Assembly: GCF_964355755.1 (NCBI RefSeq)
Contig: NC_092674.1
Coordinates: forward strand, 14,260,001-14,324,000
DNA length: 64,000 bases
Direction of reading: 5' to 3'
Source of the DNA: Antedon mediterranea
Taxonomy: Eukaryota > Animalia > Echinodermata
Below the pieces are notes generated by a model. It was not told the origin of the DNA and searched no databases. It was given only the letters and a program-made list of their open reading frames with translations. This document shows, piece after piece, positions 16,437 through 59,609 of this stretch; positions within the stretch are counted from its first letter, which is position 1, and every line of letters starts with the position of its first letter. Position numbers and translations under genes: made by a program.

Positions 16437-16583
16437 AGGATCGTATACTGAGCTGATTATAGAAAGAACGTTTCTTCTAGTTGGTTGTCGACTTGGTACA
16501 ACATTCTTAAATCCAAGAGTATCAGTGCCTACTGACCATCTAATTCCTAGAGCTCGTTCTATCGAAAGTTTCTCATAATCTAA

Positions 16584-32192: not shown

Positions 32193-32594
32193 TGTAGTGA
32201 ATTTATCTTAGTTGGTTCCGAGCTTTCTCAGGCGTATATATTTCCACGCAACGTACACAGCTGTCACTGAATGATAACTCATACAAAAAGTATATTTAAC
32301 TCAACTAGAACTTTTAGTCCTTGTAATTCGATTAATACATCTTTCTACCACTACCAGTCAAGCCTTAATATTCTCTTTATCATCTTTCCGTTTAATTACT
32401 TTGATCTTATTCTCTCTTTTCTTAATATCTATTACATTCTACTTATTATACTGGATATGCAAATTTTAGGCTTCAGAGGAGGATAACATTTTCCCTCCAA
32501 AAATTATACAATTTTGATTGGCTAATAATAAGGCGGACCTGGTCTAAAGCATCCTTCTCTAAACACAGAGAATCACAACATCAATAATATGACA
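32193..32594 (-). repeat. Gypsy 3' LTR
   Basis: Matches 51573-51973 with about 5 differences by eye; polypurine tract AAAAAGGGGAA adjacent at 32595-32605. Confidence 0.95.
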
Positions 32595-32695
32595 TTCCCC
32601 TTTTTGGGAAAAAGATTGTGTCAATCTTTCCAAAAATTTAACATTTAAAACCATTTTACTTTAAACTATCTACTAATAACACCTCTATAATATTA

Positions 32696-33136: not shown

Positions 33137-34291
33137 GGGCAATTCCATGCAAACATGGACATGACCAAAAAAATTCAAATTAATTAGTCAGCTCAAAATT
33201 TGTGTTTATGTTACTCTTTGAATATGTGGGAACTAGGTTTTTAACTTTTTCAATTCATTTATGACTTTTTGCAGCCAAAAAATTACGTTTATTCAATGTT
33301 GAATATATATTTTTTTTTAGGTGTGAAAAATAGGTAATTACGTTAACTGATTATTATTTTCCCAACAAAGCAATATTTATAAAGTAACATGTCTAAGTAA
33401 TAGTACACTTAAGATGTATGGAAAATATGATATAACTACAAATGTTGAATATCCCATATAGGAGTGCTGTGTATATTCTGTTATATATTAGGGTATGTAA
33501 TGCGAGTGACAAAAAAAATGATTTTTTTTTTTTATACCATCATGATGATAATTTTTTTTAATGAAATTTTATAATTTAGCTATACTACTTTGAACAATTA
33601 AAATTTGACAAATAAAAAATCCACGTAAATACAAAATTGTTGAGACATTGAAAAGTGAAATGCGAGTGACATGTAATGCGAGTGACGTTCAAAAATGGAC
33701 AATGTAATGCGAGTGACATTACCACAACTCTTTTTTTTGTAAAGTAAAATAGTAATTAATCTATCATTAGTTATGAATTAGTCCCAGAATTAGTATATAC
33801 ATTAATTTCATAATACAATGTGTAATTTGGCCCTTATTTGGAGGCACTACAGTATAATAATTATAGCATTAGGTTTGTTGAGGGCACAATCCCTAGCAAC
33901 GACCTTTTTGCAGTTAAATCATTTGAAAAATCAATCATTATAAGAGCTCATTAAATAAAAAACACTAAATCTGGTGAGATTTAACAAATTTGGTACAATT
34001 TTTTGTGAAGATAAGAAGGAAGGTAAGAATAAGTATACATTTATATTTAATCAAAATTTTTTTTCTTATATTGTTAGTGTTAATTATTTCAAATTCTATA
34101 ATTTGAAAACACCGCATAGGCCTAGGCTATAATAAGTAATTTATATATTATTATTTATATATTATTATTTACTAGGCATATTTTACATCACCAGGTCTAA
34201 AGCATTGTAGTTTTAAAAACAAAATATATAATTGCTTATTATTTAAAAATAATTTTAAAATATCATTCACATTTGCATCCTGCCTTTAGAA

Positions 34292-34570
34292 ATGGCCAAA
34301 CGACAGAGAAAGTACCTAGAAAAACTGAAAGCCGAGGGAAAATACACCTCATACAGAAACAAACAAAATAAAATTTCGAAAAGAAGTAAAAAAGTAAAAG
34401 AAAAGAGAAAATTCTAGCTCTGCCACCAGCTTTGAAGAAGCAGAAGATTGATGCTCTTAAAGTTGCTAATAGAAAACGTGTGGCTATTAGTTCAGAGCAA
34501 AGAAGGCTGCTTTGGCATCAGACGGACCATCACCTTTTAGAAGTGCTATGGCTTTGCTAAAGCCACTACC
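34292..34570 (+). pseudogene. Basic N-terminal remnant of the carrier element's transposase
   Basis: MAKRQRKYLEKLKAEGKYTSYRNKQ...NRKRV...SPFRS; frameshifted, no catalytic core; resemblance to Sola2 N-termini is from recollection only. Confidence 0.45.
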
Positions 34571-36212
34571 AGGGCAAAAAGAATGCTTGATGCTGGTTTG
34601 CGAAGAACTTTGAGTTCCATAATTTGTAAAATGGCTGTTTGAATTTTCTATTTTCATTTTTAGTGACCGTATAAGTGTTCTGTTACTGTGTTTGTAAAAA
34701 ATCAAGATATTCTGTTAGTGTTAAAAATAGATGATGTCCTCTAGAACTTCATCCAAATGAGTTGAAATAAAAGTTTTTACTTGAAAATTGATATAACATT
34801 CTTTGAGTGGTTTAATGTTGCATTATTTAATTATTGTCTACTTTTCTTTCTGCTTTGCTTAGTAAATACTAAGTTCACTTCTTACGGGAATGCGAGTGAC
34901 AGTAATGCGAGTGACGGGACTTTTTTGTTAAAATGTAAAATATTTTTAAAATCTATGTAATGTTGAATTTTTTTATTATCCTATTTTATACTTTAAAAGT
35001 ACAGTAATTAAAAATATAAGATCTTTTGATTTATATATTTTTAGTTTAAGGACACGTTCTTATCAAATCTAATCAAATTTTTGTTGTGTCCTTTTTGTGT
35101 AATGCGTGTGACAGAATTTCGCAATGGCGTCATTGTCGAAGTAAAAGACATACAATTTTTTTTATAGTATTTTATTAAAGACTTGCACCTAAAGTATGTT
35201 CATATAAAACATTGACTTAAAAATCCAATTAGTGTGTTCCTTCCCTTTACCAGCTAACCCGTCATATATAAAGCTCTAGCGGGTCGGCCAACCTCAATTT
35301 TCATTAGGCCTAAGTGACAACTCACCTTGGTATCAAAGTAAAGAGCCGCGATTTACGAGAGCCAGCTGTAATAAATCACAGCTTGTGGTCTGACAGTGCA
35401 AGATAAACAGATACAGTGTATATATAGCAAACGAAACAAAATAAATGTTTCCGTAAAGAAAAAAATAAAAGTATTCATACAGTTGTATTCATTATAAAAA
35501 AATATTGTTTTTACATGTTCGAATCGTGAAAATCGGTTAAGTTTAAGTGGAGCTAATGAACAAAGTTAAAATACACTTTCAATCATGTGAATGTTTACTA
35601 AAGGGCGTAGTGATAGTAATTCCTCGATGATGCACTAGGCCCGACATAAGACGCAATGCTGTTTTAGTATATCTATTTGTAACACTTTATCACGTTATTT
35701 TGCAGTAAATATGTTATATTATAATGTCAATATTATGATTATATTAATTATTGGTGAAAAACGATTTAATTTATTTTGATGTAATAAAATTACCGAACTA
35801 TTTTCTTGTGCGTAATTAGGTGACCGAGTCGCGCGGCTGCTAAGAAAAAAATACACTATTATTGTGGCCGCTGCACACGTGGTCGAGAGCATGTAGCTGG
35901 TTTACTTGATTGAATGGCGTATTAATTTTATATATAATAAAGATTTTTGATTATCTTAGAAGGAATAAAGTACAGCTTTTAAAAATAAATTATAATATTA
36001 TACGTATACCATAATTGTTAGTATGAATGAATGAGAAAAATATTTTTTATTGAGTAAAATTTAGGAACTTTTTTTCGCGTAATACAACGGTCGCATTACG
36101 TAATGTATGTTCGCCGCCCCTACCGTGGCAACTTTAATTAACTCAGCACTGTGCGAGGTCAGTTATTATTTTGTTGACGTTAGTACAATGTGTTGTTGGT
36201 AAGCTCCAAAAA

Positions 36213-39016
36213 ATGGCAGAAATTATGAGTGTTGGCAGCCGTGTACAATGTGTTGACAGTTTAGGACGATGGGAGTACGGGCGGGTGGTTGCTTTAGCCG
36301 ACGACGATGATGGACTAATTAAAGTTACATTTCCTGGCTGGTCGTCGGAGTGGGATCGTTCTGTCACTGTGCAAGAAATTCGACTGCCAGTGCAGCCGAT
36401 AGATAAACAATTTAAACGTAAGTGTATATTTATTAATTATTCTGAATTGTAGCATTAGATAGTCAATCCCCGGGCTACAGTTCATCATACTGTGCTAGGC
36501 CTAGGTGGATAAGTTTTTGACTTTAATCATTATTATAGAGAATGAAGTAGGTCTAGGCTAGGCCTATGTTAGTGTGACGATATGATTAAGACTTGAAAGA
36601 GTGAGTGCAGCGGCGCGTCGTAGGCCCACCACCGTGTCCGAGACTAGGCCTATTTATAGGACAATTCGGATAGACTGTTTTTTTTTAAATTAATATCTAG
36701 CTTTAAAGAAGGTAGCTTGGCCTACCCTACCTATATACATACACTATAATCATGCAGTACAGAAAAATCCCAGTACAAAAATTGAGGTAAATTAATCAAT
36801 ATCCTCGGGTGCCACACTAGTGACTAGCTTGATCCTAAAAATAGCCTGCCTATGAAGGGTAGGCTACTAGTAATTATGTCCTTTTTTTAAAAATGACTAC
36901 AGGAATTATGAAATATGTGAATAAGCTGTAGAAATAATTACGAGATTCTGCTGAAAGTGCATATCAGTCATTTATGGAAATTCATTATTAAGTTATACAC
37001 GGTATTAAATATATATGTTATACAGGTTCAGTTCCAGGTGGACATAGACGGTCTATTAAGAAACCTACACCTGAGCAATTAGCGACTTTTAAAAATCTGA
37101 CCTCAGAAGATGAGGTACTTGTAGGAGATGCATCTTTACAGGTCGTTGAGGTCGACAGGTTCAACCAATCTTTGGTTGTAATTAGGGACAACCACAGAGA
37201 AACAATTAATATCACTGAGTTACAGATAAAAGATAATGGAGGTATGTATTAAGTCCATTAACAATTGTGTATAATAATTAACAGCTGTTTCTTTTATTTT
37301 TTAATTAAAGAATCCTTTTTGTTTATTTTAATTAATCTTCTTACTTATCTATAATTTCTCATAAATCTGGTTGAATAGGCACTCTTTGAACTAATTACTC
37401 AATGCTAAAATTACAGGAAGTTGGTTTATATGTCTTAATTAATGTTAATAAACAATTATTTCTTTATGCTTACTCACATAATTTGGTTGGATAGGCACTC
37501 TTTTGATCTAATTACTTAATTCTGGTTCAATAATGATGATTAATGTTAAATATACAATTACTTTATGCTTTTGGTTGCATAGGCACTATTTTGTTTAGTA
37601 TCTTTAATCTAATATACAACTGTACAAACAATTCATTAATGTTAATTAAATTAGAAACACTTATATATTTTAAATTAGAAAAAGATATTAAATCATAGAA
37701 ATATTATAGTAAACTATAATGTCTCTATCATTAGATTGAGTTCTATCTATTGTATTATCTGAATAATGAATAATACTTTTTTTAGTGCAAGTTTTTTAAT
37801 TAAATCAAAGATAAAAATGCACTTTTATGATATCTGTATGATGGTGCTTTATTTTGTTTTCGATTTCAATAGGCAACCAAAATTCTAAAAGGGCAGCAAA
37901 AAAACGAAAGTCTTGCACTGTTTCTTGTGAACTTCAAACACATGCTGTACAGACAGACAGTTGGGTAAGTTTTTAAATTGTCATATAATTTAAATTATAG
38001 CTTTGTGATTGATTTACAGTACTTGTTTATTTTGTTCTAACATTAAGGCAGATAGTATTAGTAACATGGTTGTAACCAGCTCATTTGAATATACTAAAAT
38101 AAAACATCTTTTCTCTATTCCTTATTCTAGTTATCGACTGACAGCGACACCTTATTAGCTGTCACATCATGCATTGATGAGCTATATGGTATAGCAGTAG
38201 GAGAACTATATAAGGTAAAAATTGTTAGTGTTAGCATTTGTCTACTGTACTATGAAATTGTGTATTGTACTAAAGACTACATAATCAAACTTTATGTAAC
38301 AAAATGCCCATACAGTATGAATACGCTAATGTCATATTGTCAGTAATTTGGATTTATAATTTTTTGTTTTCTTTCAGATCAAGAAAAGCAACTTATTAGT
38401 TGCTGTAACAAACCTCGACTTATATAAACAATTAGCTCATTGTGTCATTTATATGGATGGTATTGATCTGGATTCTACTATCATCATTCCATACAATCGC
38501 TTAGATGTTTCTTGTGTGCCACTTTCCTGTGGATTGGACAAAAAAATGTTGGAGGAGTTCAGAAATAAGGCAAGTTCGCAAACTATAGAGAATCTCTCCA
38601 TATTAGAGTACAGAAAGCAGTTCCGAAGGGTGCAGTTGGCAAGTGCTATAAAATGTGAAGTAGGAGTGGTATTAAAGAGGAGACTGCGAGCTGTAAATCA
38701 CATGAACTTCGGACTTCTGACACCAGATGTTGATTGTGAAATGTTGCATTTCAACTTGCAAGAGGGTAAGAAAGCTAATAAATTCTCTTATAAAAATAAA
38801 AATCTTGATATGCTTGATCACATTTTGGGTAATGAATGGGACATCCATAGGTTTGAAAATGGAATCTCTTATGTAACAAGTTTGTCCATTCATATAAATA
38901 AGAAAAAGTACTTGGTAGGGTCGTTAGCAGTCGCTACATATAATGGACTTGTAGATGCAAATTATCGTCAACAACTAGGTGCTCACATGGTACATGTGAG
39001 GGATTGCTTGGACTAA
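36213..39016 (+). CDS. Five-exon gene, 411 aa, with N-terminal Tudor/chromo-barrel (Tudor-knot-like) domain; exons 36213-36417, 37026-37241, 37873-37964, 38131-38214, 38378-39016
   Basis: All introns GT-AG with compatible phases (1,1,0,0); 1236 nt open to the stop; VGSRVQCVDSLGRWEYGRV...IKVTFPGWSSEWDRSV fits the chromo-barrel pattern. Confidence 0.8.
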
Positions 39017-39591
39017 ATTGTCAATACTGTATGTAAAAACATTTTTAAAGATGCATTGTTTAAAAAAGCAAGACAACTGTGCTTTGTTGTTTTTCAAAAA
39101 TAATTTTGACTACTGTAGAGCATGCTTGCAATTCAAATTCCGTCCAATTTTCTTATTTGGCAATACATCTTTAATTGTTTCCGTATTGAAGAAAAGTCAT
39201 ATAAATAGTACTATTTAAGGATTTTACAAGTATTGTAGATTAATTGATTTGTCTTGTCTTACATGTTAAGTAATAAAAACAATTGTTGAGTTGCTTTTAT
39301 GAAAACTAAGGGGATAGTTTATCTAAAGGAAATTGGGGAAAATGTGATTTTTTTTGCTTGTTCAATCATGGAGGTATACTCCATGGTTCAATAAACACAT
39401 TAGAACATTACTAAAATCAGTCAACCCACAAGGGCAAATTTTTTAGTCACATTAACAGGTTTTAAATACTATTAAGTATTATTCAACTTCTTTTTTTGTA
39501 AGAGCAACACAATTATTGTTTTTTTTACATTGTACGCTGCCAACACTTATAATTTCTGCCTTTTGTTCTATGTAAATTGTATTGTACAAGT

Positions 39592-42500
39592 ATGAGTATC
39601 TCGGGACATTTTATTAATGGCCTATTGTGCAAGGTTCACCATCATGGTGCATCATGCAGTATAGATTGTTTATTGGAAGTTTTTTATTGGGGTATTTTTC
39701 CATTTACCAAAACTAAAATTTTCTCTCATCCCCTTCTCACAAGATTGTTTTATGTTTCAAATCTAAGAAAAATAATGCCTCTACAAACACCACCTTGTGA
39801 TATTCGGGAACCTGTTTGGAATTGGTTAGTTGAAAATTTACCAAATGGATTTTCCCCAAAAGGAACACATCATGCAGAAATACTGCAGGCCTTTGAATGT
39901 TTATCTGACACAAATATTGGCATGTCATTTGTTGCAAACTTCTTTGGAAATCAAAATCTACATTGCCAAAAGTGTCAGAGCTCATTAGATATTAACATTC
40001 TCACAAATTCAGTATATAATTACTCGCAATCGCTAAATGAAAAGTATCCACAAAACTTCAGTAAATGCATAGAGGAAGTCATAAGAAATACGATTTCACA
40101 TAAGTTAAAATGTAAATACAAGTGTAATTGTGGAGAAATGGCAAATACATTAAAAGGGCAATGTAGGATGCCTGAATTCCTTGTGGTAAACCTTGGGCTT
40201 GTGGGATGGCAAAATTGCCAAAAACCACCTATTGTTGTTCCCGAGAGAACAACCATACACTCATCCAGTTATGTTTTAACATCCGCTGTACAAATGGAAC
40301 CATCACACTTTATAGCAATTTGTAAAACTAATAGGGGTTATTCAGTCATTAATGATATGGTGCCATATACCAAGACATACCATACTTTTGCAGCAGCTGC
40401 TAACAGAAATCCCAAAATCCATTGCACATCAGTACCACTTGCAAGTTCAAAGGGCAAGGGAAAAATGGGGGGTATTCATTTGCTCATATACGCAAAAGTG
40501 GCGAGTGCTGAATGGCCGATGTTATCTTTCACTTGTCCAAAGCCAATAGAGGACCTAAATTCATCAGACCTTCCTACACAGGAATTGCCTACTGGTTCCA
40601 AGAATATGAGTACCAAAGAAAAGAATTCAGTAGATGACTTAAACAAAATGCCGATTGACTCTACTTGGCAAGTGCCACAGGAATTGCCTACTGGTTCCGA
40701 GAATATGAGTACCAAAGAAAAGAATTCAGTAGATGACCCTACTTGGCAATTGGCAAAAAAAAAAAAAAAACTTAATAAAAAGAAACATTCAGTAGATGAA
40801 TTAAACAAAATGCCGATTGACTCTACTTGGCAAGTGCCACAGGAATTGCCTACTGGTTCCGAGAATATGAGTACCAAAGAAAAGAATTCAGTAGATGACC
40901 CTACTTGGCAATTGGCAACAAAAAAAAGAAAACTTAATAAAAAGAAACATTCAGTAGATGAATTAACCAAAATGCCGATTGACTCTACTTGGCAAGTGCC
41001 ACAGGAATTGCCTACTGGTTCCGAGAATATGAGTACCAAAGAAAAGAATTCAGTAGATGACTTAAACAAAATGCCGATTGACTCTACTTGGCAAGTGCCA
41101 CAGGAATTGCCTACTGATTCCGAGAATGTAATTAGCAAAGAAAACCTATTATTAGATGGTTTGACTAAACCTGTACTTACTGATTTAACTAATTGTAACA
41201 ACAATGTTATTAAAAAAATAAATATCGGTGATGTTAACATTGAAGAAAAGGAAAATATTTCCCCTCATCCTAGGAAAAAACTCACTCAATGTAAAGTAAA
41301 AACAAACAATTTTGAACAATCTAAAAACTTTGTTGGAATTAAGATTGCAAAAAATAGTATTGTAGATATAGATATTGAAGCCATTGGTTCGACTGACATA
41401 CCACATACAATTTACAATGATAACATTTTCCTTAGCTGTCAGGAAATATTAAAATTATTAGGCCAGGAAAAAGAAATAAAAGCACGGGGATATGTCAAAT
41501 TCGACAAAATCCTTCAAGAAATGGGCCAAGACCCAAATCAAATGTTTCTTACATGTGGCAGCCGCAGACAGAGGCTCTGGGTAAAAAAAGAAGCTATAAT
41601 AAATATGTTAATGCACAAGTCATTTAGAAAACAAAAAACAGCTAATTTTGTTATGTTGCAATTGCAAGAGAAATTTAAAAATAAGAAATCTAAACTTGAG
41701 AAGACAAAATTTATTGAAAACAAGCCTCCACAAAAGACTCAAACTAGTTCATCCCCTACAATTAAGAAGGTAGATTTGAACTACAGAAAAGGAAATGTAA
41801 TTATTGATGGGCATCTTGTCAGTTACACAGTAAATGCAAATGGTGTGATTCACTTTAATACAAGTGAAATATTTTCAGCATTAGGTTTATTAAAACACAT
41901 TAAAAAGGAAGGGTACAAATATATTGATAAATATCTTAATGATCAAGGACTTGATTTTAAATCTTGCTTCATCATGAACGGTCCAAAGCGAACCTACATA
42001 ACGCTTCATGCGGTACACACTCTTATTTTATGTTTGCCAAACAGAATGATTGAAAGTGCAAAAAAGACAACTTTGTCCAATTCTGTTATTCTTGCACTGC
42101 AGCACATCACAGTAGAGAAATCTTCCGAAAACATACCATCTAAAAAAAAAGAGAAGTTCACGGTTGATGACAAAACAAATTTGTTAGAAAGTCTTAGTTC
42201 AATGTTAAGTGCAACAAAAGCAAATGACAATCAACGTTTAACAATAGATGATGTAGTGTCTGTATTGCATAAAGCAAGTATTAAATCACAAAAAGGAGCA
42301 AAAATTGTTAGAGGAATTGTAACCGATACATACAAATTATTAAACCCACTTAATGGTGAGGATGTAATTAATTGTCGCGAGAATTACAGTGGTTGTCGCC
42401 TTATGAACCGCATGAGAAAATTAATACCTGGGGTTCTTCCATCCAGAAAAACCGAAATGAAAGCTTCAGCCAAACTTAATGAAGAGTTTAGGGCAGTTTT

Positions 42501-44832
42501 GTGCCCACGCAGAACAGCATCTGGGTGGTATATTGACCCAGTCCGTTTGGTCGAAGTTTTGCTTTTTAAATATTCCTTTTTACAAGACAACATAAGTATG
42601 AAGATTCAAGGAGATGGTGCTCAAATGGGTGGGCGTAAAATTACTTATGTGGGGATTTCATTTCTCAATCACGAACTAAAGCTGCGTGGCCTCTCCTATC
42701 AAAATCCAAAAGAAATTTACCCAATTACACTTTTTTATGAAGGCGACGATCGTGATAACTTAGAAGAAAACCTAAAAATTCCCTTTTTGGAAAGATTAGT
42801 TCAGCATTTTAAATCAAATTTTACATTTTATTTAAGTGGGGATGAAATGTTCATCCAAGGTATACTGGATGGGTCATCTGTTTTAGGACCACTAACCGAG
42901 AAAGGTTGGAATATATACAATGAATGTAGCAAAGAGTCAAAAAAAAATGTATCAGAAAGTGGTATGCGAACAGACTTGTCCATGCCTATTGATCGTATCC
43001 ATCCAATTTCATTAATGCCTTCAATTCCACTTACCCATACACTTCCATGCATTCTTCACTGGGTTTCAAGGTGCACTGAAAAACTTTTATCATTGGAAGT
43101 TGAGAAAATATTTTCGCTTGGAAATAAATTAGCCGAAGTTGATGGCTCTTCAAATATTGAAGACCTAATAAAAAATTTAGAGACAAACATTAATTTACGA
43201 GGCATAAAAAACGGTAATTTCAGAATACCATTAGACAAAAATGGAAAACCAGAGCAGATTTCATTAAACAAAGATGCTGCAATCACGATAATTTGCCCAA
43301 CTCCCCTAGGAAAAGAAAAAGAATATCCACATGTTTTACATAATGTTGTCCCAACTTCAAAAATTAATAACAATCTACCTAAAAATGTAAGAGATTTTCT
43401 ACAACTAGACACTGATCTAACTGAACTTAGTTGTGTAAAGATGATATGGGAGAGTTTGTATATCATGTTTAGCATAGTACAGAAAGAACCAGAACACAAA
43501 ATTAAGTCAAGTTGTGTTGCAGGTTCTTTAAGACCGTCTGATTACAATTGGGGTTATTCCAATGATCAAAAAAATCAATATAAATTTCACGCAGAGAGGC
43601 TGTACCAACTGGTTTGCCTCAGATACAATTGGCACAACTTAACCCCATACATGATAAAATTTATTGATTATGGGGAACATTTTTTATCAAGGGACATTCC
43701 CTTATGTAGGTTTTCCACAGAAGGTGGTGAGCACAGCCACTATGATCGAAACTGCTTTTATTTCCACCACACAACTAGACATGGTGGGAAAAATAGTGTT
43801 GACCCAAACCTGGCCCAATTTAGTACTGTGTGGCGCAGGCTATCATATGACATCATTCATGGAGAAGATGAATCAGCTAAAAAAGCATTTGAGGTATATG
43901 TCAAAATGCATGTTGCTGCATCAAAAATACAGCGATGTTTTCGATTATTCTTGGTGAATAATTCTTTGTCTAAGTCTGGGTACATTCAAAACCCACAGAA
44001 TGAACATGAAAAAGCTAAAAACTTAATTTGTTTATCTAAGTTAGTACCACAAAATGTTATAGATTCAACAACTAAGAAATTATTCCGTGGGAAATCGTTT
44101 ATTTTAACTGGAAGTGTCCCAAAGTTCCAGGGGAAAAAAATGACTCAACAAACAATAACTGAAATGATAAAAGCAAATGGTGGTAAAATTAAAAAAAGCT
44201 TACCAGGAAATTCAAAAAGATCCACGAAAAAATACATAATCTTAACAAATCTTGCAACTTGCAAAAAAAGTACCTTTAAAGTGCCAAATGTCATAAAAGA
44301 TGGCGTGAGACGGCGCAGTCATGTTGTTGACTACAGTTATATATTTTCATCTATAGAATCCAACAGTCTACCTCCTTTTAGTATGCATGAACCAGAATGC
44401 CTTATGCAAATAAAGCAAAAAGTTTCGTTGTTGCCAACACTTAATCAGATACACTTTAAAAAAAAATTTCGAATGATATCTATCCTAAAAGGTCCGCGAA
44501 AAACTAAGGCAGTTATCCGAGAGCCAACACTTAAATGTGCAAAAAATGTTGCAGTTTTTTATGCCAATATAAAAAGAAAAGAATACATCAAAAGCAATGT
44601 TGGTGTAACTTTTAAAGAAAGTAGTCAATTATTTTCAAAGTATACCAAAGAATACAATGCTTTAAAACACAATGAAAAAACACATTATACAAGAATGTGG
44701 CTAAATAGCCGATATTCTAAGGCTAACCAGGCTAAAAGGTTAGCTGACCTGAAATCTTACAATTATATAAAAAAACCACAATATTTAGAAGCTACAAAAT
44801 GTAGTCTTGCTCAATCAGTTGCTCAGAATTAA
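39592..44832 (+). CDS. ~1750-aa multidomain RAG1/Transib-like DDE transposase/recombinase (USP-like protease, repeats, 2x Bro-N-like, DDE core, IQ, BRCT, HMG box)
   Basis: Uninterrupted 5.2-kb ORF (first ATG 39592); motifs IQGDG, LSGDEMF, PCILHWVSR, LTPY, FSTEGGEHS; SCSIDCLL/SHFIA/INDM; FRGKSFILTG..NGG; AATAAA at ~44907. Confidence 0.75.
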   Translation: MSISGHFINGLLCKVHHHGASCSIDCLLEVFYWGIFPFTKTKIFSHPLLTRLFYVSNLRKIMPLQTPPCDIREPVWNWLVENLPNGFSPKGTHHAEILQAFECLSDTNIGMSFVANFFGNQNLHCQKCQSSLDINILTNSVYNYSQSLNEKYPQNFSKCIEEVIRNTISHKLKCKYKCNCGEMANTLKGQCRMPEFLVVNLGLVGWQNCQKPPIVVPERTTIHSSSYVLTSAVQMEPSHFIAICKTNRGYSVINDMVPYTKTYHTFAAAANRNPKIHCTSVPLASSKGKGKMGGIHLLIYAKVASAEWPMLSFTCPKPIEDLNSSDLPTQELPTGSKNMSTKEKNSVDDLNKMPIDSTWQVPQELPTGSENMSTKEKNSVDDPTWQLAKKKKKLNKKKHSVDELNKMPIDSTWQVPQELPTGSENMSTKEKNSVDDPTWQLATKKRKLNKKKHSVDELTKMPIDSTWQVPQELPTGSENMSTKEKNSVDDLNKMPIDSTWQVPQELPTDSENVISKENLLLDGLTKPVLTDLTNCNNNVIKKINIGDVNIEEKENISPHPRKKLTQCKVKTNNFEQSKNFVGIKIAKNSIVDIDIEAIGSTDIPHTIYNDNIFLSCQEILKLLGQEKEIKARGYVKFDKILQEMGQDPNQMFLTCGSRRQRLWVKKEAIINMLMHKSFRKQKTANFVMLQLQEKFKNKKSKLEKTKFIENKPPQKTQTSSSPTIKKVDLNYRKGNVIIDGHLVSYTVNANGVIHFNTSEIFSALGLLKHIKKEGYKYIDKYLNDQGLDFKSCFIMNGPKRTYITLHAVHTLILCLPNRMIESAKKTTLSNSVILALQHITVEKSSENIPSKKKEKFTVDDKTNLLESLSSMLSATKANDNQRLTIDDVVSVLHKASIKSQKGAKIVRGIVTDTYKLLNPLNGEDVINCRENYSGCRLMNRMRKLIPGVLPSRKTEMKASAKLNEEFRAVLCPRRTASGWYIDPVRLVEVLLFKYSFLQDNISMKIQGDGAQMGGRKITYVGISFLNHELKLRGLSYQNPKEIYPITLFYEGDDRDNLEENLKIPFLERLVQHFKSNFTFYLSGDEMFIQGILDGSSVLGPLTEKGWNIYNECSKESKKNVSESGMRTDLSMPIDRIHPISLMPSIPLTHTLPCILHWVSRCTEKLLSLEVEKIFSLGNKLAEVDGSSNIEDLIKNLETNINLRGIKNGNFRIPLDKNGKPEQISLNKDAAITIICPTPLGKEKEYPHVLHNVVPTSKINNNLPKNVRDFLQLDTDLTELSCVKMIWESLYIMFSIVQKEPEHKIKSSCVAGSLRPSDYNWGYSNDQKNQYKFHAERLYQLVCLRYNWHNLTPYMIKFIDYGEHFLSRDIPLCRFSTEGGEHSHYDRNCFYFHHTTRHGGKNSVDPNLAQFSTVWRRLSYDIIHGEDESAKKAFEVYVKMHVAASKIQRCFRLFLVNNSLSKSGYIQNPQNEHEKAKNLICLSKLVPQNVIDSTTKKLFRGKSFILTGSVPKFQGKKMTQQTITEMIKANGGKIKKSLPGNSKRSTKKYIILTNLATCKKSTFKVPNVIKDGVRRRSHVVDYSYIFSSIESNSLPPFSMHEPECLMQIKQKVSLLPTLNQIHFKKKFRMISILKGPRKTKAVIREPTLKCAKNVAVFYANIKRKEYIKSNVGVTFKESSQLFSKYTKEYNALKHNEKTHYTRMWLNSRYSKANQAKRLADLKSYNYIKKPQYLEATKCSLAQSVAQN
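40570..41130 (+). repeat. In-frame coding tandem repeat (units 99, 162, 162, 99 bp)
   Basis: CCTACTG(G/A)TTCC anchor at 40588, 40687, 40849, 41011, 41110; QELPTGSENMSTKEKNSVDD. Confidence 0.92.
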
Positions 44833-45503
44833 ATTATGAATACAGTGCTAAAGCTTGTATTTGTGTTGTGTATCCTTTAATACAGTAGACTGGTACAGGT
44901 AATTTCAATAAAACATTTTTCTTGTCATTTTCTCAAATCACTAAGTCCATTCACTAAACAATTCATACTGTATGTTTCAAGTAAATATTGCCTATGCTAG
45001 TGCAAATCGATTAATAATGTACAGTACAGTAGGTATCATTTTTGGCAGAATAATAATGTGTGGAAGATGTTAGATCACTTTACAATATTTATGGCAATAT
45101 AAATCATTTATGATAATAAAAATCATTTATGGTAATAAATAAACATGTTTTTATAGTTTATGGCGTTTTAATATTATTTTTCTATTTTAACATAAGTAAC
45201 TAAAATTTAACAAAAAGTGGTTTTGAATTATACAAAACAACTTCTTTTTTTCAAAACTGTTTATCAAACTAAGATTATATTTGTCATATAGGTATTATAT
45301 AATACTGTAGTATAAAGGCCAATTTACAAAGATGAACGGTAACGGTTATAAAAATATAGAATGTATGTTATACCTTATGACCATTTACACACCATGCAAA
45401 GTGGACAGAGGTTTCCTTTCAGGATGTGTACAGATTCTATGTGATTTTCTGCTTATCATTACTCATCTCTGTAAATTGGCTTTAATTGTAAAGTATATTA
45501 GTA

Positions 45504-46460
45504 TTTCCATTTACTTTTATGTGTAAAATTAATTCAATAAATCCTATTCTTGTAATAGTATAGAGAATTTACAAATGAATTGGCTTTAATTGTAAAGTAG
45601 TATCTATATAATAATTGTAGTAGTAGTAATCTATATATAAGCGTGCCATCTAGTAAGTACAATTGTTGTAGTATGTGATAGTGATCGTAGGTAATAATAA
45701 TAGGTAGTAGTATAGTACAGTGGTACAATTTTTAAATTATGTTCTTTTAAAAATTATTTTACATTCCAATAACAATATTCACAGCTTTACAATGCAATTT
45801 AAAGTATTTATATATAACTCGGGAAAGTTTCCATTTACTTTTATGTGTAAAATTAATTCAATAAATCCTATTCTTGTAATAGTATAGAGAATTTACAAAT
45901 GAATTGGCTTTAATTGAATTGTAGTAGTAATAATAAGTACAATTGTTGTAGTATGTGATAGTGATCGTAGGTAATAATAATAGGTAGTAGTATAGTACAG
46001 TGGTACAATTTTTACATTATGTTCTTTTAAAAATTATTTTACATTCCAATAACAATATTCACAGCTTTACAATGCAATTTAAAGTATTTATATATAACCC
46101 GGGAAAGTTTCCATTTACTTTTATGTGTAAAATTAATTCAATAAATCCTATTCTTGTAATAGTATAGAGAATTTACAAATGAATTGGCTTTAATTGAATT
46201 GTAGTAGTAATAATAAGTACAATTGTTGTAGTATGTGATAGTGATCGTAGGTAATAATAATAGGTAGTAGTATAGTACAGTGGTACAATTTTTACATTAT
46301 GTTCTTTTAAAAATTATTTTATATTCCAATAACAATATTCACAGCTTTACAATGCAATTTAAAGTATATTTATATATAGCCAGGAAAAGTTTCCATTTAG
46401 TTTTTATATGTAAAATTAATTCAATAAATCCTATTCTTGTAATAGTATAGAGAATTTACA
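45504..46460. repeat. Tandem repeat, ~280-325-bp unit, ~3.3 copies
   Basis: TTTCCATTTACTTTTATGTGTAAAATTAATTCAATAAATCC at ~45504, ~45828, ~46108, ~46390. Confidence 0.9.
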
Positions 46461-46504
46461 GTTTGTCTTAAGCACTATTATTTTTAGTTTGTGAAAATAG
46501 ACAG

Positions 46505-46795
46505 TTTCAATTGGGTAGCACACTGTTTCAAAATGGATAGCACAATGTTTCAATTGGGTAGCACACTGTTTCAAAATGGATAGCACAATGTTTCAATTGG
46601 GTAGCACACTGTTTCAAAATGGATAGCACACTGTTTCAAAATGGATAGCACAATGTTTCAATTGGGTAGCACACTGTTTCAAAATGGATAGCACAATGTT
46701 TCAATTGGGTAGCACACTGTTTCAAAATGGATAGCACAATGTTTCAATTGGATAGCACACTGTTTCAAAATAGATAGCACAATGTTTTAATTGGA
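46505..46795. repeat. Minisatellite of alternating 22/21-bp units
   Basis: GCACACTGTTTCAAAATGGATA and GCACAATGTTTCAATTGGGTA, about 13 units. Confidence 0.92.
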
Positions 46796-47396
46796 AGTTA
46801 AAAAACCTATAAATGACAATAAAATATTCACTATTTTATTCACTTTTTCAAGACAATATTTTACCTCCGCCAAGGAGGTATATGTAGCCACATAAGTTAT
46901 TTACTTTGACCAAAAATTGGATTAAAAAAAATAATTTATAGCAAAAAAAAAATCAAATTGGTCGAAAGTCAATGGTTTTTTATAGAATTTACATTTTTAT
47001 TAAAGAGAAAACATTTTTTTAACTGCAAAATTGCTTATTTAAAAAATAAATAAAATATTAATTGCTCATGTTTTTGGGTGACAATACTGTACATCTTTAT
47101 AATTAAGCACATAATAATACTATTACAGTAGAAAAAAAAACACCAGAGAATTTAGAATGTAGTTCCAGTTTACTTGGCAGAGAGCACTAGCTGACCTTGC
47201 TTGAGCAATAAAACTTCCTAATCTAAACAAGCTATAATGGTAATCCAATTAAAATGCAATTACCAGTCCTAGACCTTAATCCCTAAAATGATGGTCAGAA
47301 ATCAGCAAAATTGGTAAAGGGAAGGAACACCTCATGCAAATCCTAGACTAACAAAAATGACTGTAATGTGTAATGCGAGTGACCATGGAATTGCCC

Positions 47397-48062: not shown

Positions 48063-49399
48063 TTACTATTTCCTACTGGAAGGAATATCAACACTTTGTC
48101 CCCTTCTACAAATTCTCTATCAATAGCATTCTTGTTATAATTGTGGGACATAATTTCTTGTTGTTCAAGTTTGTTTACATTAGCATCGTTCATTAATTCC
48201 TCCATTTTTTCTCTTATTTCTAACATGTATTTGATAACATCAGTAGATGTTTCTTCATCTTCTACCCAATTACTTTTGAGTAAACTCAAGGGTCCTCTCA
48301 CCTCTCTACCATAAAGCAATTTAAAAGGTGAATGGCCCGTCGCTTTACTAGGAACTTCTCTGTATGCAAACAGAAAGGGGGGTATGTAGTTATCCCAATT
48401 TTTTCTTTGCTTAACTGTAAGTGTCCTTATCATATTTTTCAATGTACCGTGAAATCTTTCAACAAGCCCATTGCTTTGGGGGTGGTACACTGTAGTCTTT
48501 AATTGATTAATCCCCAACATACTACATATAGATTGCATAATTGAAGACATGAAATTAGTTCCTTGATCATGTACAATCTCTTCGGGTAATCCTACTCTAG
48601 TAAAGACTTCTATTAGAGCCCTGGCTACTGTTTCAGCTCTAACATTGGGTAACGGGATAGCATCCGGATATCTCGTAGCATAGTCAATTATAGTAAGCAT
48701 ATATTTGTTATTACGGCTTGTTCTAGATAAGGGTCCAACAATATCTATCGCTATACGTTTAAATGGTGTACTTATAATCGGTAATGGTATCAAAGTATGT
48801 TTCCTTTTACTTTTACCCTTATCTACCTTTTGGCATTCCTTACAGACTTTACAATAGACTACCACATCTTTAAATATACCTGGCCAATAGAATTGGTTCA
48901 GGACCCTACTTTTAGTTTTCTCAACACCCATGTGACCTGCAAATGGCACATTATGACCTAAGTGTAATACACCCTGTCTACACTGAGTGGGTAATACAAT
49001 CTGTTCCACTTGGTTATTCTTATCTTTAATACTACTCCAATTTCTCATCAATATACCTTGTCTCATAAAGAAACATACCCTATGCTGACCTATTTCTTCT
49101 ATAGGGACTATCCTGTCAAACACTCCTTTGAGTGAGTCATCCTTAGTTTGCAATTTGATCAGTTCTTGTTTAGTTAGCTTGTGCTGTTGTTCATAAGTTT
49201 TATGTTTGACTGTTTTATCTTTAGCTTTATCCTCATTTTCGTCAAACAAATTATTCATTTCTGTTCCATTCATATCATCTAAACACTTAGTTTTATTTAC
49301 TTTGTTGTCATTTACTACTGTTTTCAACAATTGTACATTAGTTTCTTTAGGCGGCTCTTCTATCAGCTTAAAGTTACTATCTTTCCCTAACAATATCAT
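48063..49399 (-). pseudogene. Gypsy integrase (C-terminus deleted in this copy)
   Basis: H-x6-H...CxxC, DIVGPL, HDQGTNF, NGLVERFH; diverges from the second copy after VGNSK. Confidence 0.95.
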
Positions 49400-49960
49400 T
49401 TCGTCTTGTATTCTAACATCATTTCTATTCTGGCTTGCTCCCTAGTTAGGACGAACATTTCTTTAGCCATTGTTTCCCCACAATTCTGGTCCAAATCATG
49501 ACCCAATAACATGTCCCTCTGTAATCCTTCGATTACGGCTACAATCACTTTTCCTGTCACTATCTTACTTTCTATAGCTACCTCAGCTAAGGGGACGGTA
49601 ATATCGCCTCCTATACCTCTTAACGTAACCCATTTTCCTGGCAAGTAACATTTGTTAGGCACTAGACTTTCCTTAACAGCTGACTGGGTACATCCCGAGT
49701 CTCTAAGCATAGTTATATCCTGTCCTTCTAATTTTCCTGGTATTGTACATTTCTCCATTTTATTTTCTACACTATCTATAACTACTTGGGGTCTATCTGA
49801 TTTTAGTCCTTCACATCTTAAGCCATCTTTCACATTCGGGCCCTTCTTAGTGTCACTAGTCTTTCCTTTTGCTACCATCTTAGGACAATCCCCTATTTTA
49901 TGTCCCTTCTCCTTACAATTAAAGCATAAGCCATTAATCCATTCATTAGAAGGTTCTTTC
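49396..49960 (-). pseudogene. Gypsy zinc knuckle and aspartic protease
   Basis: CFNCKEKGHKIGDC upstream in frame; LRDSGC and MLLGHD protease motifs. Confidence 0.9.
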
Positions 49961-51026
49961 TGTTGGAAATTTCTACCATAGTTATGGAATTTGCCTCCCC
50001 TTCCGTGATACCTACAGTATTGTATCCTTGCTGCCTAGCTCCAGGGTTATTCTGAGTCGTACTATTCTTAGGTTTACTATTTTCTTGGCCCTTATAATAC
50101 ATAGGCTTATTTTCAGAATTTACGGCATTCCAATAGCCACGGCCACCTCTATTAGCTATATAATCATCGGCTATCATAGCCATATCATAGCTCTTATTTA
50201 CTTGTTTATCTCTAAGATAAAGCCTCAGATCTTCAGGCATTTTATCAAGTGCCTGTTCCATTATAATCATTTCAATAATGCCTGCAGCATCATCTTCTTT
50301 TACATTAGCACATTTCATCCAACATTTTAAATAATGGGAGAGCTCATTCAGCCATTCCCTGATGGACATATCTTTAACTCTGTTTGAATTTCTAAATTTA
50401 AATCTGTAGGTCTCTGCGGACACATCATACTTTTCTAAGATTGCCTTCTTTAAGGTATCATAATCTACACATTCTTTTACGGTTAAGGATGCATATGCTG
50501 TCCTAGCTTTACCAGACAGTTCAGGTGCTAACCTAGCGGACCACGTATTCTTATCCCAACCTGTGGCTTCTGCCAAGTGTTCAAATGTTCTAAAATATAT
50601 ATCAATATCATCTGATTCCTTCAAAGTAGGAACCTTTACCTTCATTTCATCTACTATATTCCTAGCATTACTGTAGCTAGACCTATTTTCTAATTCCATC
50701 ATTTTCACTCTTTCTTGTGATTCAATTTTTCTTTGCTCTATATCTATTTTCTGTGGCTCTATATCTGCTTCTAATCTTAATTGGTCTTGTTGGTATTGTA
50801 ATTCTAACCTTTTGTTTTCGGCCTCGGCCTCGAACTTCATTCGAAAATATTCGAGCATCATATCTTTAGGCATACCGCCGGGTATTTCGGGCAAATCAAT
50901 ATCCCTAGCCATGTTATCATACATTTCATTGACTTGGTCAACCTCTTCTTGGTCAACCATCTCTTCCCTAGTATCTTTTTCTGACATAGTCTTATCTATA
51001 TTTTTACCCGATCTTAAAGTTGTCAT
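49893..51026 (-). CDS. gag: Gypsy gag with SCAN-like capsid region (frameshifted before the zinc knuckle)
   Basis: MTTLRSG start; YFRTFE..W..W, LKKAILEKY..ETYRFKFR, IIMEQAL..MPEDLRLYL. Confidence 0.9.
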   Translation of the reverse strand: MTTLRSGKNIDKTMSEKDTREEMVDQEEVDQVNEMYDNMARDIDLPEIPGGMPKDMMLEYFRMKFEAEAENKRLELQYQQDQLRLEADIEPQKIDIEQRKIESQERVKMMELENRSSYSNARNIVDEMKVKVPTLKESDDIDIYFRTFEHLAEATGWDKNTWSARLAPELSGKARTAYASLTVKECVDYDTLKKAILEKYDVSAETYRFKFRNSNRVKDMSIREWLNELSHYLKCWMKCANVKEDDAAGIIEMIIMEQALDKMPEDLRLYLRDKQVNKSYDMAMIADDYIANRGGRGYWNAVNSENKPMYYKGQENSKPKNSTTQNNPGARQQGYNTVGITEGEANSITMVEISNRKNLLMNGLMAYALIVRRRDIK

Positions 51027-51558
51027 GCTAATAACAATTTTACTAATGAAATATGTAAACTTATGTATACAAAATATGTTATAAAAGTATTTGTATTACC
51101 TTGATTCCATTCAGATATGTAAAAAATATGAAATCCACATAAATTTTTAAATGCAATACAATCTAAGACATTAATTTACTTCAAAGTCACAAACAACGTT
51201 CCAAGTTCGCTCCGTACAAAAATTTGCTTTCGAAATAAAAAATAGTTTACAAAGTCAGCTTTGCAAATCTTCTCAAAATTTTCTGGGCTTCCTTCTGTTA
51301 CTTCAGTCTTCTTCTTTCAGATCTCGGTGAATATATACAGTATCTCCGATGAATATCCAGCAGTCTTGAGTAGGTACCTTGAGCTCAACAGTACTTCTTC
51401 TTCGTTGTAATATCCAAACAACGCACGGTATAAAAACTGTCAGGAATCCAGATCTTCGTAACCATTTAACTTTTTGGTTACTGATTTAACAGGCCCGTAG
51501 AGTAGGCACTGTCACTTCTTCTTCTTCTTGATACTTAAATCATGTATACAAAAATTTT

Positions 51559-51572
51559 CACCGCTGCCACCA
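51559..51572 (-). promoter_or_regulatory. Primer-binding site complementary to the tRNA-Leu 3' end
   Basis: TGGTGGCAGCGGTG immediately after the 5' LTR; mirrored at 57916-57929. Confidence 0.85.
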
Positions 51573-51973
51573 TGTAGTGAATTTATCTTAGTTGGTTCCG
51601 AGCTTTCTCAGGCGTATATATTTCCACGCGACGTACACAGCTGTCACTGAATGATAACTCATACAAAAAGTATATTTAACTCAACTAGAACTTTTATTCC
51701 TTGTAATTCGATTAATACATCTTTCTACCACTACCAGTCAAGCCTTAATATTCTCTTTATCATCTTTCCGTTTATCTACTTTGATCTTATTCTCTCTTTT
51801 CTTAATATCTATTACATTCTACTTTTATACTGGATATGCAAATTTTAGGCTTCAGAGGAGGATAACATTTTCCCTCCAAAAATTATACAATTTTGATTGG
51901 CTAATAATAAGGCGGACCTGGTCTAAAGCATCCTTCTCTAAACACAGAGAATCACAACATCAATAATATGACA
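51573..51973 (-). repeat. Gypsy 5' LTR
   Basis: TG...CA, 401 bp, primer-binding site on the inner side, TSD CTCAT on the outer side. Confidence 0.95.
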
Positions 51974-54900
51974 CTCATTCTAAAACAGATTTCCTTATCA
52001 TAATAAAATAATATATGAATTTAAATGTAATATTGTATACATAATATTAGTAATTGCCATTGCATTTATTATAATTATATATTATACGGTTACCCCTTAA
52101 TTATACTATAGTATAATTTTCTTGTTATATTTTACAATATTTTCTTCATAGTTCAACAATTTTTTCTTTCACAGGAGAAATTATCATACTGAATCATCAC
52201 ACACCAAGTCTCATAAATCTCTACTGTATTTCTCCAAGGTACTCCAGCTACATGGTATTGCCTTGAGGCTAAACTACAGTAAACGATATACTGGCACTAC
52301 CATCATTCCTGGCCCGTCAACCTGGACCACATTACAGTATGGTCCAACACATAAGTACAGTAGTCGTACTACTGATTCAAAATAGTGAATTACACCCTGT
52401 GGTCAAGGCTTTATTTGCTCTTATGCTTATTTCCTCCAAATATAGAGTACGTAGGGCTTTCGATTTGCTTTTATACCAGTTAATTTAAAAATCGTTTATG
52501 CCTATTGTTGCATAAAGTATCAAATTTAGACTGTAAATACTGGGATGATCACCCTAAATTTTCTTTTTCAATTAACAATTTTATATTTCACAGCTGAAAA
52601 ATGCACTAAAGCATCATATAGAGATTTTTTATTCATAACTGTTAAATTGCATCCCAATACATGGTACCTATATAAAAATACAAAGGCGGCCAACACAGAT
52701 AGTTTGATATATACAGTACTCTCTTATAAATAGATGTATATCTCCAAACTACTCCAACTACCTAATTAGCATACTACTGTACACTTTGTAGACAAGAAAT
52801 AAATTGTATCCACCTAGAGGACTTATGGTAGTACAGTCGATCGTCCTGTCACTGGCCCGGTCAACATAATCTACGCCTAGATTATTACAGTAAGTACATT
52901 ATTACAGAGATTTTTTTTTTTTTTGCAGAAATCAAAGTTATGTGTATAGAAAGCAGTACTCGTATTAAAAACTAAGCAGGTTATATTCTTGTACGCAAAC
53001 TGGCAGGATATTTTGAATATTTTTTGTTGTTGAAATGATGGAATCCTAACTTCATTTTCCACGAGCTGGAGAGTGACAAAGACATATTACGACCCTTTTA
53101 TTTAAATTTATTTGGATAGACCTCTATGTAAATTCATTAAAGGCTATATTATTGTTTTATATTTTAATATGTGATAGTAGATAATCATTGTGCATAATGA
53201 AGACTATGAATCTAATATTTACTTGCATTCTCATCTTTTTAAAATTGTATTTATAATGCTGGTAATGAGTTTACTATTGAAAAAGTCATGTTTCCACTTA
53301 TCTCAAATTGTGGCACACCTCTAACCTTGGTAGAACTGACTGTGTTCTACATGAGTACATTTATTCTGCCATATAGTAGTGTTTCCACCATACTTCAACC
53401 TGGTAATTGAATAAATTTCATCGGGGTAAAATTTAAACTAATTATCACCTTTTAACATAAAGTATCCTCCTGAAAAATGTTTGTACTGTACTTCATCTAA
53501 TATCCATTACTTAATACTAATTTGGGTGATTTATGTCTAACTTCAGGAATGATCTGAGGCTAGAAGAACGAATTTCTGTACATATAATTTATATAAAAAA
53601 TAAACCAATGTTTTCCTAATAACTTAACCCCTAGGTTGATAACTAACAAAGAAATTATTGAAATTGTGTTCTTACAATATATGTGTACTGTATCTACATA
53701 TGCATACTGCGTTCAAAAGAAGAATGTTTTATAGTTATTATAGGTAACTGGTTATTTCCAAATATTAAAGGTCTGATATCTAACATAAACTAAATGTTAT
53801 CAAACTATGTTTTTGAAAATCTTTATGATATAATAATTATAATAATATGAACATAATATTAAATTATATTGACTATTTTTGATAATCATCATGTCCTTAT
53901 AAATTCATTTATATTTATTTTGTGGTAATATAGTTTATATATTATGTATTAAATAAATTGGTAAGGCCCTATACTGTTTATATTTAAGGAAAGTTTATAC
54001 ACACTTTTATTTTATGCCTACCAATATTAGTATTAATTGTTTATGTAACTATTTTGTCTAATTGCATTGAATTTTTGTATAGGCCAATGGCATTAATGTT
54101 TTTCTCAAAGCAAATTAGCCTAATAATGCCATATTTAGACACACAATTCATTGATTTCTGATATTCTGTACTTGTGTATGCATTACTAAAATAGTAGTTA
54201 TTTTATTACTTTTATAATGTATAAACATTTATTCATTTTTTTTTTACATTTTTTAATTTAAAAATTATTAAAATACCTATCTACCTTTCTGTTATTGTTA
54301 CTATTATAATATTTTTTGAGGCAGATTGATTTCAATAAAAAAGAATTTAAAAAATTAATTTGACTTATACTGTACTATGTTAGTTCAGGAGATGAAGTGT
54401 GTGTGGGCAGAATCTGGTGTGTTGGAGGTTGGTGATGTGAGGTGTAAAGTTGTCACTTTAAGACCTAAATTAGATGTTTTCTGAAGAAAAGAAGTAAGAG
54501 GATAGGCTTTCAAACAACTTCAAGAAGATTCACACAGAAATATTTACTTCCCAATAAATAGTATTTATACCAAGTATCAAATGTTTTTGAATACGAAAAA
54601 TATTTTTTATCGATGTTTTTTGTATATGTTTTTAAGCAAAATTCTATCATAACCCTAATTTTTAATGTTCAATGTGATATTTATTGAAGTGCTTTGAATA
54701 CGTTGATGAAATTTGGAGGTATGAAACTTTGTTAGGAGTAGAATCAGCTTCAAGCATTAAATGTTAAAAATATGTTTATATTACTCATTAATTAATAATA
54801 ATTATTAATAAATTAATAGAAAACTAGAGAGGGCGCTTTTCGACAAGAAAATGAATGTTTTTTTATGTGTGTTATTTTTCCGCTCGAGTTTATTCAATGT

Positions 54901-59595: not shown

Positions 59596-59609
59596 GGGAT
59601 TGTCCTAAG

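Follow-up and report, generated by a model that had tools for sequence, protein, structure and literature searches.

What does a protease resembling the ubiquitin-specific proteases (USPs) do at the N-terminus of a transposase? This question is raised by a locus of the echinoderm Antedon mediterranea, found in a stretch of 64,000 nucleotides (contig NC_092674.1 of assembly GCF_964355755.1, positions 14,260,001 to 14,324,000, forward strand), which is referred to here as the window. The window is AT-rich (GC 0.20–0.44 per kb) and also contains BEL and Gypsy retrotransposons. A preliminary description, made from the letters alone, had placed a USP-like cysteine protease at the N-terminus of a transposase. 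All motifs quoted in it were found in one open reading frame (ORF) on the plus strand, 39592–44832, in which the USP domain and a catalytic core of the RAG1/Transib-fold DDE type indeed stand together. From the predicted structures, the locus is an intact transposon of marine-invertebrate type, about 12.1 kb long with probable 5'-CAT terminal repeats, whose transposase has a RAG1-like predicted fold and a predicted ubiquitin-removing protease at its N-terminus. The parts of the ORF are as follows.

39592..44832, plus strand: intronless transposase ORF of 1746 amino acids (aa), comprising USP domain, repeat linker, two small repeated domains, RAG1/Transib-fold DDE core, IQ-like helix, BRCT domain and HMG-like box
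39592..40500, plus strand: USP/C19-fold cysteine protease domain, with Asn9 (39616), Cys22 (39655), His239 (40306), Asn254 (40351) and finger-tip cysteines C125, C128, C178 and C180
39616..39657, plus strand: extended Cys loop from Asn9 to Cys22, with C13 (66/76), H16 (61/78) and H18 (52/81)
40577..41160, plus strand: low-complexity linker of in-frame tandem repeats (162/99-nt units), without Gly-Gly
41368..42141, plus strand: small conserved domain present twice, possibly Bro-N-like and DNA-binding (a lead only, atlas score 0.77)
42289..43911, plus strand: RAG1/Transib-fold catalytic core, with D1008 (42613), D1084 (42841), H1156 (43057) and E1377 (43720)
43909..43971, plus strand: IQ-like helix, matched by Pfam IQ in relatives and without a match in the window's own protein
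44077..44379, plus strand: BRCT domain (PF16589, E 8e-9, passing the Pfam cut-off)
44554..44781, plus strand: weak HMG-box-like C-terminal domain (PDB HMG boxes, E 0.026–2; Pfam E 0.002 in the relative P0063)

As a single sequence, the N-terminal domain returned nothing meaningful in Pfam or PDB searches, and a word-index search with residues 1–313 found one relative without recovering those later reached via the core. At the curated cut-off of Pfam UCH (PF00443) the window's protein had no match and the best family member reached E 0.031, while P0087 matched UCH_1 at E 2e-4, below the cut-off. By its sequence, the domain belongs to a distant USP subfamily. Atlas placement put it near the UCH clusters (score 0.95). 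The AlphaFold2 (AF2) model of the domain, built from a 10-sequence alignment, had a predicted local distance difference test (pLDDT) score of 82.4 and a predicted template modelling (pTM) score of 0.85. With this model, 37 of the 37 Foldseek matches listed belonged to the USP family (best USP54, E 1e-10, TM 0.54). The 50 matches listed in the VIA structure comparison were also all USP folds, 5 of them the inactive Pan2 (best USP46, Z 17.6, root-mean-square deviation 5.2, 254 aligned). A 43-sequence profile of relatives reached USP15 (E 2.5e-8) and put the His box of the family and the DD that follows it in register with the GHY and DD of USP15, USP8 and USP46. As this profile reached USP15 and the AF2 model matched only USP folds, the match is beyond chance. 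The peptidase C19 layout that had been proposed is thus upheld by model, Foldseek, VIA and profile alike, and the N-terminal domain has a predicted USP (peptidase C19) fold, with the palm-thumb-fingers arrangement of a papain-like protease. A viral fold search returned generic giant-virus USPs at 8–15% identity and weaker nidovirus polyprotein matches; therefore, no viral origin of the protease is claimed.

The Cys box GASCSIDCLLEVF holds Cys22 (codon 39655). The zinc-ribbon motifs CQKC and CKYKCNC supply C125/C128 and C178/C180, respectively, the His box PSHFIAI contains His239, and INDM contains Asn254 and Asp255 (40354); MPEFLVVNL and YVLTSAV were also present in the domain. Cys22, His239 and Asn254 sit in the AF2 model as in USPs, the first at the start of a helix, the second at the start of a strand and the third after the next strand. 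The register of Cys22 is based on secondary structure and whole-domain alignment. A match to Ubp8, in which Cys22 aligned with a cysteine of the zinc-binding stretch of that protein, was not used for this register.

Conservation was counted with a profile that found 256 clusters at 50% identity (E up to 0.001). The best 150 of these were examined, to which six other relatives, two ORFs from loci and the window's own protein were added, and the counts refer to the rows spanning each column. Asn9 was invariant (72/72), Cys22 was kept in 96/100, His239 in 117/120 and Asp or Asn at column 254 in 111/113, and D25 of a CxxD box was found in 98/100. Columns 236–238, beside His239, varied freely. The predicted papain-like fold and the conserved triad, the two points on which the preliminary description had made its proposal depend, were therefore both found. 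Its C-H-D triad held for Cys22 and His239, which are conserved in register, whereas the third residue is Asn254 and not Asp255: of the 113 rows at column 254, 103 had D and 8 had N, and the column of Asp255 had D in 72/113. Asn9 is a candidate oxyanion-hole residue but lies 13 residues ahead of Cys22, the spacing of most transposase-linked members; in short-loop members the Asn is five residues ahead (N-x4-C), as in ordinary USPs. From their conservation, C13, H16 and H18 of the loop may form an extra zinc site with C69, which was kept in 67/109. For USP53/54, an extended Cys loop and an oxyanion Asn are reported to be required for K63 cleavage (PMC12037411). A FastTree tree of 79 USP domains of at least 200 aa, from which no support values were read, was used descriptively only.

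The core that follows the protease returned no match in a PDB search as a single sequence. Its model had a pLDDT of 86.6 and an RNase H-type DDE fold with a helical insertion. The best Foldseek matches were RAG1 (E 2.8e-10), HzTransib (2.4e-7), BbRAGL (2.9e-7) and the P element (1.9e-5) at 10–14% identity, and the 37 matches listed comprised 31 RAG1, 1 BbRAGL, 3 Transib and 2 P element structures. The region after the USP domain is thus a predicted RAG1/Transib-fold DDE transposase. A search with the core found 17 relatives; 16 of them were aligned with the window's core (P0019 was excluded), and D1008, D1084, H1156 and E1377 were invariant in all 17 aligned cores. The zinc-binding positions were taken to be those of the RAG1 motifs. 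A CxxC after the second Asp, which would correspond to the ZnC2 cysteines, was found in 0/17 aligned cores, and the stretch LTPYM.K..D[YH] (ZnH2) had His in 5/17. Pfam IQ matched 14/17 relatives at E<=0.1, four of them above the cut-off; the IQ-like and HMG-like tails are weak matches, yet they recur among relatives. No relative of the core was found among 16 candidates from viral contigs. The 29 candidates from prokaryotic genomes yielded one, L022 (338–3794), a broken copy of a USP-transposase gene on a 3.8-kb contig of a bacterial metagenome-assembled genome; this contig is probably host DNA contamination.

The association between protease and transposase recurs. USP sequence was present in 10 of the 17 core relatives, with the whole domain in 7. 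Conversely, among 26 USP hits of at least 800 aa, 17 carried the same DDE core, 4 the middle repeats of the core, 2 Helitron RepHel and 1 JmjC, and for 2 no partner was assigned. Judged from these sequences, the USP-transposase fusion is a family trait. Named hosts are sea cucumber (P0014, P0047, P0052), hemichordate (P0063) and amphioxus (P0101, USP only), and L012, L013, L014, L016 and L019–L021 are intron-bearing transposase relatives (L012 at 791–10069). The Helitron RepHel proteins P0076 and P0133 (with DUF6570) and the JmjC-containing protein P0136 are headed by the same USP subfamily, so that the USP module moves between elements.

The start of the domain is of interest as well. The Cys lay within 35 residues of the start in 68/100 rows, and three rows carried a leader. 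The hemichordate transposase P0063 has a Pfam ubiquitin domain (E 7.5e-9) that ends in LTGG 21 residues before the Cys. The amphioxus P0101, whose gene model is named IGSF22, has a weaker ubiquitin-like domain ending in GG, also 21 residues before the Cys. In L008 (1272–7574, a 2101-aa frame) the leader ends in DVESNPGP, which we take to match the 2A consensus, directly before the USP domain of the transposase. After the expected break, the Cys would stand at +21, +21 and +19, respectively. These three of 100 rows hint that a defined N-terminus matters for the protease; the leaders likewise give a hint of a tie between the domain and ubiquitin chemistry.

What, then, might the domain do? Our preferred reading, to which we give a probability of roughly 0.55, is that the N-terminal protease works as a deubiquitinase, which the transposase brings to the ends of the transposon and which acts at the site of transposition. 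On the model, the protease is probably a tethered, active isopeptidase. It would cleave after the diGly of ubiquitin or a ubiquitin-like modifier, and by analogy with USP53/54 the extended Cys loop would shape the choice of chain or substrate. The transposase would hold the protease on DNA, while the BRCT domain and a Tudor-like partner, encoded by the accessory gene described below, would hold it on damage-marked chromatin. Removal of chains from the transposase and the post-cleavage complex would spare them extraction and proteasomal decay, and removal from nearby histones would damp or steer repair. A precedent is given by the VTD domains of Helitrons, reported as active deubiquitinases and proposed to shield transposition proteins from the proteasome (PMC9741609).

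Several observations weigh against this reading. The fold alone does not show activity or substrate, given that an inactive Pan2 was second in VIA (Z 17.4) and the SUMO protease USPL1 lay within 1.5 Z units of the top; identity to solved USPs was 9–18%. The conservation figures are biased upward because the rows were picked by the same profile and include near-duplicates. Moreover, no part of the USP domain was seen in 7 of the 17 core relatives, nor was there a USP match between the terminal repeats of the intron-bearing subfamily L012, so the protease is not required by every relative; the USP-less cores may be 5'-truncated gene calls. Finally, since the left end of the window's copy is short by 6 nt and no target-site duplication was found, its present mobility is not established.

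Four other explanations were weighed on the same evidence. The domain could be active and yet specific for SUMO, as is USPL1, or for NEDD8, and would then counter SUMO-linked silencing or cullin ligases. USPL1 was matched in all three comparisons (Foldseek E 1.4e-8, VIA Z 16.1, profile E 1e-4), one family member matched Pfam Peptidase_C98 (E 0.003), and the CxxD box resembles what we take to be its counterpart in USPL1 and CYLD. Some Helitron VTDs are also reported to cleave NEDD8 (PMC9741609). However, ubiquitin-type USPs were level with or above USPL1 in the same searches and the domain fused upstream of the P0063 protease is of the ubiquitin family, and we consider this specificity unlikely, if still worth serious attention. 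Less probable again is that the main task of the domain is to process the polyprotein of its own element, by stripping a ubiquitin-like leader or freeing the transposase. The leaders described above (ubiquitin-like with GG in 2/100 rows, 2A-like in 1/100) would leave the Cys near its position in Met-started members, and the linker after the USP domain is long and variable (71–354 aa). On the other hand, the window's protein has no leader to remove, and release through a diGly site of the linker was discarded: 13 of 21 linkers, the window's included, have no Gly-Gly and the other 8 share no motif.

A further explanation takes the locus as a domesticated or dead single-copy gene pair whose protease serves a host function. 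The low and even depth of the interior, with only one partial second copy, would fit it, as would the shortened left end, the missing target-site duplication and the lack of the RAG1 zinc-binding CxxC in the core. It is difficult to reconcile with the nesting of the element in another transposon that itself appears to split a Gypsy element, with a left end from a repeat family whose depth is about 8 times that of the interior, with the common right end but different flanks of L012 and L013, with the head-to-tail joint of terminal repeats in L001, and with a DDE triad invariant in 17/17; we hold it to be improbable. It seems very improbable that the USP domain is without catalysis and serves as a scaffold or for ubiquitin binding, in the manner of the pseudo-UCH of Pan2. 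Pan2 supplied 5 of the 50 VIA matches listed, one of them at rank 2, and solved USPs have a longer loop ahead of the catalytic His; against this, clusters that share less than 50% identity show almost no variation at the four positions of the catalytic site.

An accessory gene lies upstream of the deubiquitinase-transposase gene in the window, and the two start regions share an inverted repeat.

36213..39016, plus strand: accessory gene of 411 aa, exons 36213–36417, 37026–37241, 37873–37964, 38131–38214 and 38378–39016
36208..36239, plus strand: inverted repeat arm A, over the accessory ATG, complementary to arm B
39536..39567, plus strand: inverted repeat arm B, complementary to arm A, ending 24 nt before the transposase ATG

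The five predicted exons are separated by GT-AG introns and have no internal stop. The N-terminus of the accessory protein had weak Pfam Tudor/chromo-barrel matches (Agenet at E 0.0015 in L007); the Pfam search of this protein gave neither kelch nor PHD, the domains of a RAG2-like partner. Accessory homologs adjoin the transposase in 4 of 21 metagenome loci, most of the others being short: upstream in L001, downstream in L007 and convergent in L012 and L013. The convergent order is that of RAG1 and RAG2, and USP was not found in these two loci. The inverted repeat was found in both elements (2/2) in which both parts were present. In L001 the arms are placed in the same way but consist of other letters (40 nt, 88%), and L001 and the window's element have almost no nucleotide similarity. 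The duplex energies were −61 and −69 kcal/mol versus medians of −25 (354 windows) and −30 (259 windows), and G-U accounts for 4 of 8 non-Watson-Crick positions on the sense strand and 1 of 8 on the other. From two elements, this is a weak hint that the arms pair as RNA. Such a duplex could mask the accessory AUG and bring a leader next to the transposase start, and would set the ratio of accessory protein to transposase; alternatively, it could act in trans.

The outer features of the element are listed below.

35234..35252, plus strand: probable left terminal inverted repeat, without the outermost 6 nt of the right one
47312..47336, minus strand: probable right terminal inverted repeat, reading 5'-CATGAG... 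inward
45504..46794, no strand assigned: subterminal tandem arrays of 280-nt and 43-nt units, the latter holding CACAATG/CACACTG
33137..47396, no strand assigned: outer insertion, a second DNA transposon with 13-nt inverted ends (GGGC), junctions read by eye

The inverted repeat 35234–35252/47312–47330 is perfect over 19 nt, and 0 of 200 shuffles reached 18. Contigs place a repeat-family boundary at 35233/35234, and the family contig carries six more letters, which match the six extra bases of the right end (to 47336). The left-end sequence belongs to a family at about 8 times the depth of the interior. A partial second copy in the same sample, at similar depth, lacks 39525–40265, and with it the start codon of the transposase and the greater part of the USP domain; a 27-nt filler stands there instead. 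Run X5, whose coverage extended over the flanking repeats and hardly into the interior, was left out of the evidence. The 43-nt array at 46501–46794, near the right end, contains heptamer-like CACAATG and CACACTG, and its units are possibly subterminal repeats bound by the transposase. CACAATG at 46.5 kb and CACTGTG at 36147 were rejected as ends for wrong orientation and lack of a partner.

The window's element, L001, L012 and L013 all have 5'-CAT at their inferred ends. L012 has 5'-CATTAC ends on both sides and L013 the same right end with a different flank. In L001, a contig whose two termini overlap by 69 nt, CATTAC-type ends meet head to tail with one base missing: the 41-nt near-perfect palindrome at 6369–6409 can be read as the junction of the right end with the left end, the latter lacking that base. 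The contig would be a circle or two units in tandem. In L012, which is possibly a chimeric contig of a multi-copy element, no target-site duplication was found, and at the window's element the left junction is deleted.

The locus appears to be triply nested, with a Gypsy element split by the GGGC-ended DNA transposon that itself holds the RAG1-like element. The outer insertion appears, from junctions read by eye, to split the Gypsy reverse transcriptase (RT). Copies of a long terminal repeat lie at 32193–32597 and 51573–51976; the second Gypsy copy ends short of the RT and was unusable as a guide to the junction. A 4025-nt Gypsy segment (SCAN-gag, integrase before RT) occurs at 48063–52087 and 57401–61425 as an inverted duplicate with 100% identity, which is either a recent duplication or an assembly fold-back. 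Elsewhere in the window, BEL/Pao ORFs (DUF1759, RT, Peptidase_A17, integrase) were found at 14118–19502 on the minus strand, and two long tandem satellites, weakly similar to each other, at 20461–21949 and 26755–28311.

How does the element relate to known systems? Similar to USP46/12, USP54/53, USP18, USP15 and USPL1, the protease has the predicted USP fold, finger-tip CxxC pairs, a Cys at a helix start, and a His box and Asp/Asn in register. Besides its low identity to these proteins, it differs in having CxxD in place of CYMN, the usual USP Cys-box motif, a 13-residue Asn-to-Cys loop with conserved C/H/H, a short loop before the His and a fusion to a transposase. Zisupton, Dada, Ginger and MULE/CACTA elements also combine a DDE-type transposase with a protease for ubiquitin-like modifiers, Ulp1 or OTU, but these proteases (C48, OTU) and the transposase superfamilies are others. 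Helentron-borne OTU proteases, to which the preliminary description had pointed, are in print together with UCH (PMC11417382; PMC9741609): HLE2 Helitrons carry domains of the UCH, OTU and herpes-tegument types, and UCH is reported as enriched in HLE2 (PMC11417382). The likeness to these Helitron2/Helentron proteases (UCH, OTU, VTD/Herpes_teg_N) is a deubiquitinase-type domain on a transposon enzyme, and the RepHel proteins P0076 and P0133 share the very subfamily. Different from these rolling-circle elements, however, the window's element is a DDE cut-and-paste transposon with terminal inverted repeats.

With RAG1/RAGL (ProtoRAG) the element shares the core fold, the DDE residues, the His of the C/DxxH motif and a two-gene organization. 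RAG1 carries a RING E3 ligase (PMC9099191), so that a ubiquitin-pathway enzyme stands at the N-terminus of both, and the HMG-like box echoes the use of HMGB1 by RAG. Nevertheless, the core is only 10–14% identical, the protein has a protease of opposite sign instead of RING or NZD, the ZnC2 cysteines are absent and ZnH2 is mostly lost, a BRCT tail is present, and the partner is Tudor-like and not RAG2-like. The inferred ends are CAT and not CAC; CAC ends and 5-bp target duplications are reported for RAGL and Transib (PMC7204232; PMC9435367). Transib (HzTransib) likewise shares core fold and DDE, but the window's element has CAT ends, a second gene, a multi-domain protein of 1746 aa and missing zinc ligands, and a 5-bp duplication was not seen at the ends inspected in its family. 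An N-terminal zinc finger, with the Chapa domain, is described for Chapaev and RAG1L (bioRxiv 10.64898/2026.01.24.700457); the N-terminus of the window's protein folds as a USP and not as the Chapa/NZD finger of Chapaev/CMC. Because its ends, zinc site and partner gene differ, the element falls outside both Transib and RAGL by its sequence features.

Full-text searches of the literature, not all of them aimed at this family, turned up no DDE transposase with a USP; their scope did not extend to subscription papers, to supplements or to Repbase/Dfam, which may list one. The available portions of PMC6431247 and bioRxiv 10.1101/2021.09.26.461848 do not name such an element. The RAG1-like transposon family apparently is undescribed, Repbase/Dfam families being outside the comparison. 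Taken together, the results allow a broader reading that we offer tentatively and at less than even odds. The elements would form a new group, at superfamily level, of RAG1-fold transposons of marine invertebrates with 5'-CAT ends and a chromatin toolkit of their own. This toolkit would comprise BRCT, IQ and HMG tails, a Tudor-like partner and a deubiquitinase of USP type, which would be active, have its extended Cys loop braced by zinc and require a free N-terminus, obtained via ATG, ubiquitin-GG cleavage or 2A skipping. A start-region RNA duplex would switch the output of partner and transposase, and excision could leave signal-joint-like circles.

If true, the element would be a mirror image of the RAG1 RING ligase and a new outgroup for RAG evolution, supplying a large, intact and distant RAG1-fold family with a ubiquitin enzyme opposite to that RING. 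It would carry, within the full-text literature searched, the first USP-class deubiquitinase on a cut-and-paste transposase. The conserved start-codon duplex is a candidate control switch, and the divergent USP subfamily would be of use to deubiquitinase biochemistry. Together with the UCH, OTU and VTD domains of Helitrons, the fusion would be further evidence for ubiquitin tagging as a general host barrier to transposition, an idea that would become testable in one polypeptide, in which C22A spares the DDE core.

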